A DNA stretch of 61,516 nucleotides from a virus, in the IMG/VR virus record IMGVR_UViG_3300027908_000008, positions 1 to 61,516 of that record; one strand, given 5' to 3'. The notes below the pieces were generated by a model that was given only the letters and a program-made list of their open reading frames with translations, did not search any database and was not told the DNA's origin. Positions 2,541 through 6,212 of this stretch are shown piece by piece (positions within the stretch are counted from its first letter, which is position 1; every line of letters begins with the position of its first letter). The position numbers were made by a program, and so were the translations under genes.

Positions 2541-3178
2541 GCGAAGCCGAATTGATCCAAGGGAGCCCCGAGTGGCGCGCCGCGCGGGCCGGGAGCCTTG
2601 GCGCGTCCCAGATAGCCGACGTGATAGCCAAGACTAAATCCGGGTGGGGCGCCAGCCGAGCGAATGTGATGGCCTCGCTGGTCGCAGAGAGGCTGACGGG
2701 TCAAGCACAAGAAGGATACACTAACGCCGCTATGATGTGGGGAGTGGAAAAAGAACCGGAGGCGCGCAACGCCTACTCGTTCCACTGCGACGTGGACGTG
2801 AATCAGGTCGGCTTGGTCAAGCACCCAACCATCGTCGGCACCCACGCTAGCCCGGACGGCCTACTTGGGAGCGACGGCCTGCTTGAAGTGAAGTGCCCCC
2901 TGACTTCAACCCACATTGAAACCCTGCTGGGCCAGAATGTGCCGGGCAAGTACGTCACGCAGATGCAATGGCAGATGGCCTGCACCAAGCGCCAGTGGTG
3001 CGACTTCGCGTCCTACGATCCGTGTCTGCCCCCGGAAATGGCGCTGTTCGTGAAGCGCGTTCACCGCGACGATGCGATGATTTCCAAACTAGAGCGCGAG
3101 GCCGTGGCCTTCCTGAATGAGCTTGACGCCACGGTCGCTCAACTGCGGTCTCGCTACATGAGGGCGCAAGCTGCGTGA
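2537..3178 (+). CDS. YqaJ-like viral recombinase exonuclease (PD-(D/E)XK)
   Basis: Start ATG 2537 (ATGA overlap); GSPEWRAARAGSLGASQIADV ... ASPDGLL...GLLEVKCP, typical YqaJ. Confidence 0.8.
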   Translation: MSEAELIQGSPEWRAARAGSLGASQIADVIAKTKSGWGASRANVMASLVAERLTGQAQEGYTNAAMMWGVEKEPEARNAYSFHCDVDVNQVGLVKHPTIVGTHASPDGLLGSDGLLEVKCPLTSTHIETLLGQNVPGKYVTQMQWQMACTKRQWCDFASYDPCLPPEMALFVKRVHRDDAMISKLEREAVAFLNELDATVAQLRSRYMRAQAA

Positions 3179-3621
3179 GCGAAAAGCCCACCATCCTGCT
3201 AACGAGCCGAGAAACGCGCCAGAGAGCCGCGTCCTGGGCGCTGAACGCCCCTCCAGGGACTATCGTTGAGTTTCGCCAGCCCAAGCGCACCGTGGACCAG
3301 AACGCCCGCCTGTGGGCTCTCCTGACCGACGTGGCCCGGCAAATTGAGTGGGCCGGACGGAAAAGGACGACCGAGGCGTGGAAGGATATCTTCACGGCGG
3401 CGCTTCGGTCTGCGAAACACGAACTGGACGTTGTGCCCGGCATCGAAGGCGGCTTCGTTCTCCTTGGAATGCATACGTCCAGCATGTCCAAGGCCGAAAT
3501 GATTGACCTGCAAACCCTGATCGAAGAGTGGGGCGCCAGAAACGGAGTGATGTTCAGTGATCTGGAACCGGGAGCAGGTGAACGCGACACCAAGGAAGCC
3601 GCTCAGCCTAGCGCAACGTAA
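3175..3621 (+). CDS. ninB: NinB/Orf-family recombination protein
   Basis: RTVDQNARLWALLTDVARQIEWAGRKRTTEAWKDIFTAAL...VVPGIEGGFVLLG parallels lambda NinB (SLDQNRKLWACLGDVSRQVEWHGR...). Confidence 0.8.
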   Translation: MSEKPTILLTSRETRQRAASWALNAPPGTIVEFRQPKRTVDQNARLWALLTDVARQIEWAGRKRTTEAWKDIFTAALRSAKHELDVVPGIEGGFVLLGMHTSSMSKAEMIDLQTLIEEWGARNGVMFSDLEPGAGERDTKEAAQPSAT

Positions 3622-3934
3622 CGTCCTCTCCATCCGCCAGAACTGGCGATGCGGCTGCGGATGCGGTGGAACACTGATCTCAGAACCCGTCATTGACGAG
3701 CACCTGATTCCGCTGGAGCTGTCAGGCAGCAACGACCTCTCGAATCGCGCGCTCTACCTCGTCGCCTGCGCCAAGCTGAAGACCAAGAAGGACCGGCGCG
3801 ACATTGCCAAGGCGCACAGGCTCATTCGCAAAGCCAACCCAGAAACCCGGAAGGTCACGAAGCGCCCAATCAGATCGAGAGGCTTTCAGAAGGACTTACG
3901 CAAGCGCATGGACGGCACGGTCGAGCGTCGCTAG
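3557..3934 (+). CDS. Small HNH-type endonuclease
   Basis: CGCGCGGTL...IDEHLIPLELSGSNDLSNRALYLVACAKLKTKKD; start uncertain because the track ATG overlaps ninB by 65 nt. Confidence 0.6.
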   Translation: MIWNREQVNATPRKPLSLAQRNVLSIRQNWRCGCGCGGTLISEPVIDEHLIPLELSGSNDLSNRALYLVACAKLKTKKDRRDIAKAHRLIRKANPETRKVTKRPIRSRGFQKDLRKRMDGTVERR

Positions 3935-4887
3935 TTCTTCCGCCGCTCCAGCCGCTCGTCGGTCGGCTCCTGCCCCACCCGCGCGTCCGGCGGGGAGTAG
4001 ATTGCCGACAAGATCGCCCTCCCTATCGTCTCCGGAATGATTGGCGGGTTCAGGTTTCCGAGGGCGTGGATGCGGTCCACCGTGTCGGAAGTCCTTGAAG
4101 CCACTCTAGCCAGTCCGGATTCAGGCTCCCAAGTATGGCGTTCTTGCCGTGCGATTGCAGTCCCGATCGGCGCGAGGCTGTAGGCGTCGGCAGCAGTCCC
4201 CTCATAACTAGCGATGCCAAGCTCGGGCTTTTGCGGCGGTATTCGGCTGGAGAGCCTCTGTCTTTCCAGTCCCGGGCCATGGGCGTAGGGACAAGCGATT
4301 GATTTACCGCACGCCCGAGTTCGTTCCAGCTTGGCCCGTTCGTCTTGCCGTCCGGGCTGGCCCCATGCAGCGTCGGCCAGAGTTGCGACGATCCAGACGC
4401 GATCACGGATGTGGGGTGCGTCAAAGGCGGCAGCCGATAGGCAATGCCACTCCGCATCGTACCCGAGCGCGGCCAGGTCTCCGAGGACTCGGCCAAAGTC
4501 AGCGCCTTCATTGATAGTAAGGAGACCGACCGAGTTCTCCAGCAGCAGTCCTCTGGGTCGTATCTCGCCAGCGAGACGGGCGATGTGCGTCCATAGTCCA
4601 GAGCGTGGATCGTCCATGCCAAGTCCCGTGCCCGCTGGGCTGTTGCCCTGGCAGGGCCAGCCGGCAACGATCCAGTCGGGAACAAGTCCATCTGCCCGCA
4701 GTCGCTCTCCGGTGAGTTGCTCGACATCTTCGTAGATCGCGACATCGGGCCAGTGTTTCCTCAGGATGCGACGACAGAAAGCGTTGATCTCGCAGAAGGC
4801 GATTGTGGAGAATCCGCCGGTTCGCTCCAGGCCGAGCGAATAGGCGCCGACGCCTGAGAACAAGTCGAGCGTTTTAAGCCGGCTCAT
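3931..4887 (-). CDS. dcm: DNA (cytosine-5)-methyltransferase
   Basis: Motif I DLFSGVGAYSLG, IV GWPCQGNS, VI LLLENSVGLL, VIII FDAPHIRDRVWIVA, X ALGNLNPPIIPETIG. Confidence 0.85.
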   Translation of the reverse strand: MSRLKTLDLFSGVGAYSLGLERTGGFSTIAFCEINAFCRRILRKHWPDVAIYEDVEQLTGERLRADGLVPDWIVAGWPCQGNSPAGTGLGMDDPRSGLWTHIARLAGEIRPRGLLLENSVGLLTINEGADFGRVLGDLAALGYDAEWHCLSAAAFDAPHIRDRVWIVATLADAAWGQPGRQDERAKLERTRACGKSIACPYAHGPGLERQRLSSRIPPQKPELGIASYEGTAADAYSLAPIGTAIARQERHTWEPESGLARVASRTSDTVDRIHALGNLNPPIIPETIGRAILSAIYSPPDARVGQEPTDERLERRKN

Positions 4888-4945: not shown

Positions 4946-5440
4946 TCAAGATAATCTCTCCAGCCGCATATGCCTTTTGTCCGACCTCTCGCCCGCCGCC
5001 GCTCTCACATGCTCGGCGCAGTAGCTCAGCCCGATTTCCTTGCGTTGGCCGCAGAAGTGGAAGTCGGAGCGGGACGGGTCGCCCAGAGGCCAACGGCAGC
5101 AGTACGGCGTCAGGGCCAGCACGGCGTCGCTGGACGCCATGGCCGGCCTGGGTGAGGCTGGGATGGGGATTGGTACCGGCCGGGGCTGTGCGGCCCTGTC
5201 GCGCCCCTTCTGCGCCGCCACCTTAGCGACCGCTGCCTTGGCGCCCTCGTTGCTGAGCCGGTTCAGCTTGACGGCCTCGGGCGTCTTCTTCCACCCGCGC
5301 CTGGTCGCTATGCCGGTCACGACGCCGCGCCCGGTCAGGTTCAGCATCTGCGAGACCACCAAAGCCGTCAGGTTCTGCACGACGTAGAGCGCGTGGATTT
5401 TGCGCTCCAGGGCGAGGGAGATGCGGGGCTCGCCGCTCAT
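4946..5440 (-). CDS. gcrA: GcrA-like cell-cycle regulator homologue
   Basis: Start M86 of the track ORF (ATGA overlap at 5437-5440); N-terminal HTH-like LNLTGRGVVTGIATRRGW; C-terminal CRWPLGDPSRSDFHFCGQRKEIGLSYCAEH. Confidence 0.75.
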   Translation of the reverse strand: MSGEPRISLALERKIHALYVVQNLTALVVSQMLNLTGRGVVTGIATRRGWKKTPEAVKLNRLSNEGAKAAVAKVAAQKGRDRAAQPRPVPIPIPASPRPAMASSDAVLALTPYCCRWPLGDPSRSDFHFCGQRKEIGLSYCAEHVRAAAGERSDKRHMRLERLS

Positions 5441-5655
5441 GCGTTTTCCCGCCACGGATCGTGTTTCGGCTTGGCAGGCTCGCCCTTGTACGGCCACCCG
5501 CCTCGCCAAGTCCGCATGTAGTCCCGCAGGTAGGCGTTGCGGCACAGCCGGCAGCGTGGGTGATCGCCGCCGGTCGCGTTCTCGGCGACTCGCGCGTGGC
5601 CGCAGCGGAAGGTCGCCCCCTTCGGCGCGTCGGCGGGGGTCATGCCGCTCTCCAC
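5437..5655 (-). CDS. Zinc-ribbon miniprotein (CGH...CRLC...YLRDYMR)
   Basis: FRCGHARVAENATGGDHPRCRLCRNAYLRDYMR; paralogue of 1085..1264; high GC3. Confidence 0.55.
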   Translation of the reverse strand: MESGMTPADAPKGATFRCGHARVAENATGGDHPRCRLCRNAYLRDYMRTWRGGWPYKGEPAKPKHDPWRENA

Positions 5656-5675
5656 AGGATGGGCGCTTGGTCACG

Positions 5676-6212
5676 CTAGATGCGGTGAACACCACGAGCG
5701 AGCGGATGCTTCGGCGCGCCGGTGTTCGTCTTGCCCCAGCACCATAGGTCCGGGTAAGGCGATTCGCCGCTTTGGATTTCCTCGACTACGTGCTCAACGA
5801 ACATGTCATCCCACGCTATCGCGCCCCAGCAGACGAACACTTGGTGAGCCCGCTTCGCCATATGGACAACCGCCGGCAGGTTCTCGAAGTAGAGGGCGTC
5901 GCGTGCCGACCAATCGCCGCCGTCGATCCCGTTGACGATGCGTCTGCACTCGGCTGGGCTTGGCGAGCAGAACGGGTAGAGGTTGGCCGCGTCGTAGCCG
6001 CCAAAGCCAGCGCGTTCGAACCAGCCATTCCACCAGCGCGAGGTCGGATCGTCCTTGTCGGCATCAGCGGTCGAGGGGTTGCAGCCCAGCACGAGCGCGC
6101 GTGGTCCCGGTCCCCAATCGCGGGATAGTCGAACGCGGCAACCGTCACGCGAGAAGAACGCCGAGCGGCGCAGGACCGGCTCACCAAATAGGTCAAGTGC
6201 AGGGCTATTCAT
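5676..6212 (-). CDS. DUF1643 domain protein
   Basis: RVRLSRDWGPGPRALVLGCNPSTADADKDDPTSRW...GFGGYDAANLYPF matches the DUF1643 pattern. Confidence 0.7.
   Translation of the reverse strand: MNSPALDLFGEPVLRRSAFFSRDGCRVRLSRDWGPGPRALVLGCNPSTADADKDDPTSRWWNGWFERAGFGGYDAANLYPFCSPSPAECRRIVNGIDGGDWSARDALYFENLPAVVHMAKRAHQVFVCWGAIAWDDMFVEHVVEEIQSGESPYPDLWCWGKTNTGAPKHPLARGVHRI

Follow-up and report, generated by a model that had tools for sequence, protein, structure and literature searches.

A methyltransferase gene on the minus strand of the IMG/VR virus record IMGVR_UViG_3300027908_000008 (positions 1 to 61,516 of the record; this whole stretch of 61,516 nucleotides is referred to here as the window) was found to code in two reading frames over the same bases. 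The locus very probably encodes a heterodimeric C5 cytosine DNA methyltransferase from this one stretch of DNA. Frame A gives the catalytic chain, designated alpha, and the nested frame B would give a second chain, designated beta. Frame B also codes; purifying selection acts on the two frames over the same bases, and each of them is maintained as an open frame. A first-pass annotation of the window had listed three explanations for the second open frame, namely a shadow open reading frame (ORF), a frameshift isoform and genuine dual coding. The homology and comparative data uphold the last of these and speak against the other two. The coordinates of both ORFs and of their motifs are collected in Table 1.

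In the proposed enzyme, alpha would form the large catalytic domain with motifs I-VIII, tied by a probably disordered linker of no fixed sequence to a C-terminal motif X helix. Beta would be translated from its own start within the alpha gene and would supply the small domain. Its block SETWPRSG.MR.G.AY would dock on the alpha strand just before motif VIII, its (W/L)PTPxA modules, which vary in number, would most likely read the target sequence, and its motif IX (NPxWxEWLxGxPxxWT) would pack against motif X. On DNA the two chains would come together as an enzyme made up of the parts that a monomeric C5-methyltransferase has. Such an enzyme would methylate the phage DNA and so allow escape from host restriction.

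The two predicted chains and their motifs

Alpha matched PF00145 of Pfam with an E value of 6e-38, over residues 5-176 only, and phrog_363 with an E value of 2e-61 over residues 2-295. Motifs I, IV, VI, VIII and X, which the first-pass annotation had listed for frame A, were all found in its translation. Motifs I (FxGxG), IV (PCQ), VI (ENV/ENS) and VIII (RxR) stand in one chain, and the motif residues are invariant in the alignment of related proteins. Motif X (ALGN) is also present. Between VIII and X, alpha has only an unconserved linker, without motif IX.

The +1 frame was confirmed in the ORF list to be open for 231 codons, and its length from stop to stop is 236 codons. The offset between the two starts (4887-4745 = 142 = 3x47+1) places beta in the +1 frame of alpha. 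The motif strings quoted earlier for frame B all occur in the translations, but their assignment to another methyltransferase group had to be revised. They correspond to the missing small-domain part of the same enzyme family, including what appears to be the motif IX that is absent from frame A. A lack of profile matches had been named beforehand as an argument against frame B. Significant matches were found, namely to phrog_1008 'DNA methyltransferase' (E 1e-20) and to phrog_26627 (E 2e-5), and the database relatives of beta amount to 811 proteins at E <= 1e-3, nearly all of them unnamed.

The identification of motif IX in beta is indirect and comes from comparison with two other phages. Residues 208-228 of beta align to residues 290-310 of gp88 from Gordonia phage CheeseTouch (E 0.024 in a single comparison), and this segment falls within the PF00145 match of gp88, which covers residues 4-331. 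The motif IX block also directly precedes motif X in gp44 of Arthrobacter phage Andrew. These comparisons suggest that beta carries motif IX.

In-frame ATG codons of beta are found at 4745, 4727 and 4691 (beta codons 1, 7 and 19), any of which might serve as the start, and the sequence GAGGA stands 12 nt upstream of the first of them.

Structure models of both chains were evaluated. The AlphaFold model of alpha showed a predicted local distance difference test (pLDDT) score of 85-98 for residues 1-170, below 50 for residues 196-269 and 90-94 for the motif X helix. Its best Foldseek match was M.HhaI (2uyc, E 4e-14). The model of the alpha and beta complex reached an ipSAE of 0.87, compared with 0.00 for the best of three controls, with a partner pLDDT of 58; that mark was attained by 58 of 80 solved complexes and by 2 of 110 mismatched pairs. 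The runs share at least 75 % of their contacts. Residues 90-100 of beta are predicted to touch residues 144-162 of alpha, and residues 205-227 of beta to touch residues 253-283 of alpha, the predicted beta contacts starting at residue 39. The tightest predicted contacts, between alpha 144-149 and beta 93-97, join segments that are encoded by overlapping bases (4441-4478). Alpha 144-149 is encoded at 4441-4458 and beta 90-100 at 4446-4478.

Conservation and selection in both frames

Two sets of related loci were compared. The B-ascertained set comprised 160 loci, obtained by way of frame B both from viral contigs and from the genomes of bacteria of many phyla, while the A-ascertained set comprised 80 viral loci fetched by frame-A patterns only. 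The loci of both sets cover many phyla and 38-67 % GC. A frame-A methyltransferase ORF overlapped frame B in all 160 B-ascertained loci, always with B in the +1 frame of A. Conversely, B was found in the +1 frame in 78 of the 80 A-ascertained loci, the other two being a contig end and a disrupted copy. The two-frame layout was kept in all but two of about 240 related loci examined. Therefore, frame B does not stand as a gene of its own in any case, and members of this methyltransferase subfamily practically always have it.

A tblastn search against phage genomes gave the same picture, both frames matching at the same loci in a Synechococcus phage, a Microcystis phage, an Acinetobacter phage, and Gordonia, Arthrobacter and Mycobacterium phages. 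The ORFs of the two frames have 304 and 298 codons in Acinetobacter phage ABMM1 and start 4 nt apart, and only frame A is annotated. A relative of this Acinetobacter phage gene in a prophage of E. coli PCP07014 (800-1561 of the locus) is labelled by PGAP as a pseudogene with an 'internal stop'. In Microcystis phage Mwe-JY08 (1-753 of the locus) the matches to both frames lie at the extreme end of the linear record, where the gene is cut off, and the sole annotation in that stretch is an 86-aa 'hypothetical protein'.

The alignments of the two chains were complementary. In alpha, strong conservation was observed over motifs I-VIII, the region from VIII to X was unalignable and of variable length, and conservation returned from W..EP.VGRVA.GVP.RVDRL.ALGN onwards. 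The converse was observed for beta. Its N-terminus is serine-rich and variable and is followed by a conserved core (..YG..LA.YDP..SWRTSQ..FSETWPRSG.MRNG.AY.LP.L), then by (W/L)PTPxAxD modules whose number varies, and lastly by GSLNPxWVEWLMGFPxGWT. Base composition followed the same division. The wobble-like GC is at alpha position 3 in the N- and C-terminal parts, and in the linker it is at alpha position 1, the third position of beta. This move was seen in both high-GC and low-GC loci. For the stretch 4381-4500 of the window, GC by codon position was recomputed as 75/50/68 % for frame A, equal to 50/68/75 % for frame B, in agreement with the earlier hand count. The codons reported as unusual at 4070-4125 were likewise present (AGA, TCA and ACT in frame A; CTA, CAA and ACA in frame B).

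Fourfold-degenerate sites of frame A were evaluated in 76 A-ascertained sequences of 38-67 % GC. A-ascertained loci were used because the loci found through B had been chosen by the very blocks under test, which would make the test partly circular. The constraint on the WPRSG block was weaker in the A-ascertained than in the B-found loci, but still clear. Mean fourfold diversity was 0.70 over alpha residues 1-105 (29 sites) and 0.53 over residues 134-146, which lie under the beta WPRSG motif (0.43-0.56 across the beta docking block). Values of 0.28 and 0.43 were obtained at A152 and A168. The lowest mean, 0.21, was found over residues 253-271, under beta motif IX, where each of the seven sites was below all 29 of the N-terminal sites. 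At A157, P158, R161 and R163 of motif VIII the diversity was 0.72-0.74, i.e. saturated. Since the motif VIII residues are invariant and their fourfold sites saturated, selection there acts on frame A only. The homologues keep frame B open and suppress synonymous change in frame A over the conserved blocks of B. The first-pass annotation had named the opposite, frequent stops in B with normal synonymous rates in A, as a refutation.

A comparison of third positions between the window and its three closest relatives was in line with these values. The proportion of differences was 0.39-0.48 over alpha 1-105, 0.06-0.23 over alpha 134-168 and 0.15 over alpha 253-272, and it rose to 0.46-0.58 over alpha 273-296, after the beta stop. 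Over alpha 253-272 the most variable position was alpha position 1, which is beta position 3 (0.35-0.40). In the pairwise DNA alignment with Synechococcus phage Ssp-JY42, 100 of the 103 bases of the dual block were identical.

Both frames are also kept free of stops. No +1 stop was found over the equivalent of alpha 100-272 in 69 of 75 A-ascertained loci, and the mean number of +1 stops in that set was 0.16. Synonymous resampling gave a mean of 4.17, and the +2 frame one of 9.24. Among the loci below 50 % GC, 26 of 28 were without a +1 stop, where 3-9 stops would be expected. For the alpha linker, frame A was stop-free in 144 of 145 B-ascertained loci, where the expectation by beta-synonymous resampling was 2.0. 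As the linker is kept open in this way although its sequence is unconserved, alpha is read through to motif X.

Table 1. Positions of the two chains, their motifs and the adjacent genes in the window.
Feature	Position	Strand	Remarks
Alpha ORF (frame A)	3931-4887	minus	318 aa; C5 cytosine methyltransferase large domain, linker and motif X
Alpha motif I (DLFSGVGAYSLG), S-adenosylmethionine-binding loop	4831-4866	minus	F10, G12 and G14 invariant in the alpha alignment
Alpha motif IV (GWPCQGNS), catalytic cysteine	4639-4662	minus	P78 and C79 invariant
Alpha motif VI (ENS)	4531-4539	minus	E117 and N118 invariant
Alpha motif VIII (APHIRDRVWIVA)	4384-4419	minus	3' of the beta docking block; H159, R161 and R163 invariant
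Alpha linker, residues 169-252	4132-4383	minus	Sequence not conserved, frame kept open
Alpha motif X region (DRIHALGNLNPPIIPETIGRAI)	4012-4077	minus	Mostly 3' of the beta stop; G277 and N278 invariant
Beta ORF (frame B)	4050-4745	minus	231 aa, +1 of alpha, wholly inside the alpha gene
Beta docking block, putative (SSETWPRSGTMRSGIAYRLPPL)	4422-4487	minus	Shares bases with alpha VLGDLAALGYDAEW
Beta PTP modules (LWPTLHGA..GPSWNELGRAVN, LVPTPMARDWKD, LLPTPTASRRSG)	on the alpha-linker bases 4132-4383	minus	Probable target-recognition region
Beta motif IX block, putative (GSLNPDWLEWLQGLPTRWT)	4074-4130	minus	Aligns to LNAAFAEWMMGLPDGHVT of CheeseTouch gp88
Beta stop codon	4050-4052	minus	
GcrA-family protein	4946-5695	minus	PF07750, E 2e-16, residues 111-244; directly upstream of the methyltransferase gene
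DUF1643 gene	5676-6212	minus	
HNH-endonuclease-like ORF	3557-3934	plus	phrog_333, E 2e-7; converges on the methyltransferase gene with a 4-nt overlap of the stop regions
NinB gene	3175-3621	plus	Overlapped over 65 nt by the HNH-like ORF

Known two-chain enzymes and related layouts

The closest published layout is that of M.EcoHK31I (E. coli HK31, recognition sequence YGGCCR; Lee, Kam and Shaw 1995, Nucleic Acids Res 23:103). In the accounts cited here this is a two-polypeptide C5-methyltransferase whose alpha chain bears motifs I-VIII as well as X and whose beta chain carries motif IX, the whole of beta being read from the alpha gene in a different frame (PMC2836561, PMC3404938). Methylation is described as requiring both chains (PMC2836561). 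Several N-terminal methionine codons can reportedly start its beta chain, the first 40 residues or so being dispensable (PMC2836561, PMC3404938). The window shows the same arrangement, compared here by published layout, with motifs I-VIII and X on alpha and with beta nested at +1 and probably bearing motif IX. M.EcoHK31I itself did not turn up in searches of E. coli genomes and plasmids. In beta of the window the ATG codons lie at codons 1, 7 and 19 and the predicted contacts begin only at residue 39, which resembles the dispensable stretch of about 40 residues. The two cases differ in setting, since M.EcoHK31I belongs to a restriction-modification system, whereas the copy in the window seems to stand as an orphan within the early region of a phage.

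M.AquI (Agmenellum quadruplicatum = Synechococcus PCC 7002, recognition sequence CYCGRG; Karreman and de Waard 1990) is also described as a two-subunit C5-methyltransferase (PMC3404938). As far as this account goes, the division between its two subunits falls close to the point where the large domain borders on the small one, as in the window. However, its large subunit is said to end within the variable region, and the small subunit to consist of the rest together with motifs IX and X. In contrast, motif X of the window is on alpha and beta is fully nested, so that the window does not show the AquI-type split. With the monomeric M.HhaI and M.HaeIII (PDB 2uyc and 1dct) alpha shares the catalytic fold, and alpha and beta together would hold motifs I-X. 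The difference is that the small domain of the window would be a separate chain in the +1 frame, with a disordered alpha linker in its place. The same partition as in the natural alpha and beta is shown by the 'Class J' circular permutants that were engineered from M.MpeI and M.SssI, in which the motif X helix is joined covalently to the large domain and a split after motif VIII yields two pieces matching the two domains (PMC5944983). Those are laboratory constructs made from separate genes and not from overlapping frames.

Other phages carry variants of the layout. In Arthrobacter phage Andrew (858-2007 of the locus) it is AquI-like, gp43 having motifs I-VIII and stopping after VIII, and gp44, which is in the +1 frame and overlaps gp43 by 239 nt, having the docking block and the PTP modules together with IX and X. 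Both Andrew genes are annotated as DNA methyltransferase, and the same two-gene annotation is found for gp65/gp66 of Mycobacterium phage GigiOuiOui. In CheeseTouch, the alpha frame of gp88 (1302-2345 of the locus) has both IX and X, and the +1 ORF (1567-2118) has only the docking block and the PTP modules. Between VIII and IX, alpha of gp88 reads like an Arg/Ser-rich filler.

The layout itself has thus been known since 1995 from M.EcoHK31I. Its wide spread was not described in the literature searched, where only M.EcoHK31I and M.AquI were named as two-chain C5 enzymes.

Alternative readings, module change and genomic setting

Several observations weigh against the heterodimer. The open +1 frame of the window alone is not beyond chance, as 33 of 200 synonymous shuffles of frame A had as few +1 stops, and the longest open +1 run of 236 codons compares with a shuffle mean of 124 and a maximum of 275. 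Because the length of the +1 ORF alone is within chance, the case above chance rests on homology and comparative data. The ribosome-binding site of beta in the window (GAGGA at 12 nt) is only fair, and the beta start codon is not kept across the family, so that no general start can be named. Beta gave no match in Pfam or NCBIfam, and its profile gave nothing above a chance match (E 0.33) to PDB sequences. The model of beta alone, with a pLDDT of 57, was too poor for a fold search. The score of the complex model may come from the joint likeness of the two chains to solved monomeric C5-methyltransferases, in which case it shows likeness and not binding. Moreover, the papers cited above put the target-recognition domain of M.EcoHK31I in its alpha chain, while the conserved PTPxA region of the window, which we propose for that function, is in beta.

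A further point of this kind concerns the sequence of the window itself. At 4078-4128, alpha shows several departures from the family just before motif X, with ES.LARVASRTSDTV in place of EP.VGRVA.GVP.RV. Beta is also off consensus there (WLEWLQGLPTRWT compared with WVEWLMGFPxGWT), and the closest relatives share part of this divergence of alpha and beta.

Three other readings of the locus were considered. According to the first, beta would be a real and selected second protein that is not a methyltransferase subunit, for instance one with a regulatory, DNA-binding accessory or anti-defence function that merely shares the DNA. Selection on frame B proves coding and not what beta does, and the searches of Pfam, NCBIfam and PDB gave beta neither a curated family nor a solved relative. 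We nevertheless regard this reading as improbable. Frame A is without motif IX and without a conserved variable region, and these are just what beta has, placed between VIII and X as in the canonical order. In phage Andrew those beta blocks are joined in frame to motif X, and in CheeseTouch gp88 the motif IX block stands in the alpha frame, within the PF00145 match. Beta without alpha was found in none of the 160 loci, and the beta chain of M.EcoHK31I is, by the account cited above, required for methylation.

A second reading, slighter still in our estimation, is that a single polypeptide is made by ribosomal frameshifting from A to B and back to A, the full-length frames not both being translated as such. 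The order that would result, A (I-VIII), B (PTP, IX) and A (X), is the canonical motif order of a monomeric enzyme. However, two shifts in opposite directions would be needed, and neither an XXXYYYZ heptamer nor a homopolymer of five or more was found in the gene, so that the slippery sites which the first-pass annotation had proposed to look for are missing from it. The selected WPRSG block of beta lies 5' of motif VIII, where selection acts on frame A only, and no single reading path can hold both. Together with the lack of a slippery site, this calls for two polypeptides. In addition, a shifted ribosome would never read the alpha linker, which is open in nearly all loci, and the precedent M.EcoHK31I is described as two separate chains.

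The third reading, in which frame B would be a non-coding shadow held open by GC-richness (63 % in the window, with an open +1 frame equalled by the shuffles above) and seemingly conserved only through frame A, applies to the part of B over alpha 1-105, where the fourfold sites of A are saturated, but as an account of the whole frame it is hardly credible, since B reaches its highest conservation and shows its modular pattern just where A cannot be aligned, is open also in the loci below 50 % GC, and under its motif IX leaves the fourfold sites of A nearly frozen and alpha position 1, its own third position, the most variable.

For the heterodimer, a broader joint reading appears reasonably probable. 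A large clade of C5-methyltransferases from phages and prophages in many phyla would have the two-frame alpha/beta arrangement as its usual architecture, and the arrangement would not be the oddity of one E. coli enzyme. Beta would have the whole small domain, i.e. the docking strand, the PTPxA modules and motif IX, and the 'variable region' of alpha would be no more than a tether of unconserved sequence that is kept open. Specificity would shift through gain and loss of PTP modules, and the frame of IX and X would have moved between the chains several times, giving rise to AquI-, EcoHK31I- and CheeseTouch-like forms.

A difference in module number was observed between the window and a cyanophage. 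Positions 4197-4382, i.e. 186 nt or 62 codons with two PTP modules, are absent from Synechococcus phage Ssp-JY42, and this difference is flanked by the repeated GCCGACGC, which encodes P-T-P. The repeated flanks suggest that PTP modules are gained or lost by recombination between repeats, both frames being kept.

It is rare in bacteria and phages for long overlapping genes on the same strand to be kept across phyla. The present overlap extends over about 230 codons, with measurable selection on both frames. For the study of evolution, the family offers a large data set on two proteins that share one sequence, in which even the predicted contact surfaces share bases. Gene callers give one of the two proteins or call a pseudogene, and the databases consequently list beta, in hundreds of entries, as a 'hypothetical protein' that belongs to no family. 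The family can also be seen as a natural split between large and small domains with modular recognition repeats, useful for the prediction of specificity and for split-enzyme engineering. M.EcoHK31I has been used for such engineering (PMC2836561), and M.AquI has been cited as a natural precedent (PMC5944983).

The surroundings of the methyltransferase gene resemble the early region of a phage. The plus strand has Erf, HNH, exonuclease, NinB and a further HNH gene, and the minus-strand genes are the methyltransferase, a GcrA-family gene and a DUF1643 gene (Table 1). No partner restriction enzyme was evident in the view around the gene, and an orphan anti-restriction role is therefore likely. 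GcrA is a methylation-sensing cell-cycle regulator of Alphaproteobacteria, and the presence of a phage copy of it beside a cytosine methyltransferase is a curious pairing.

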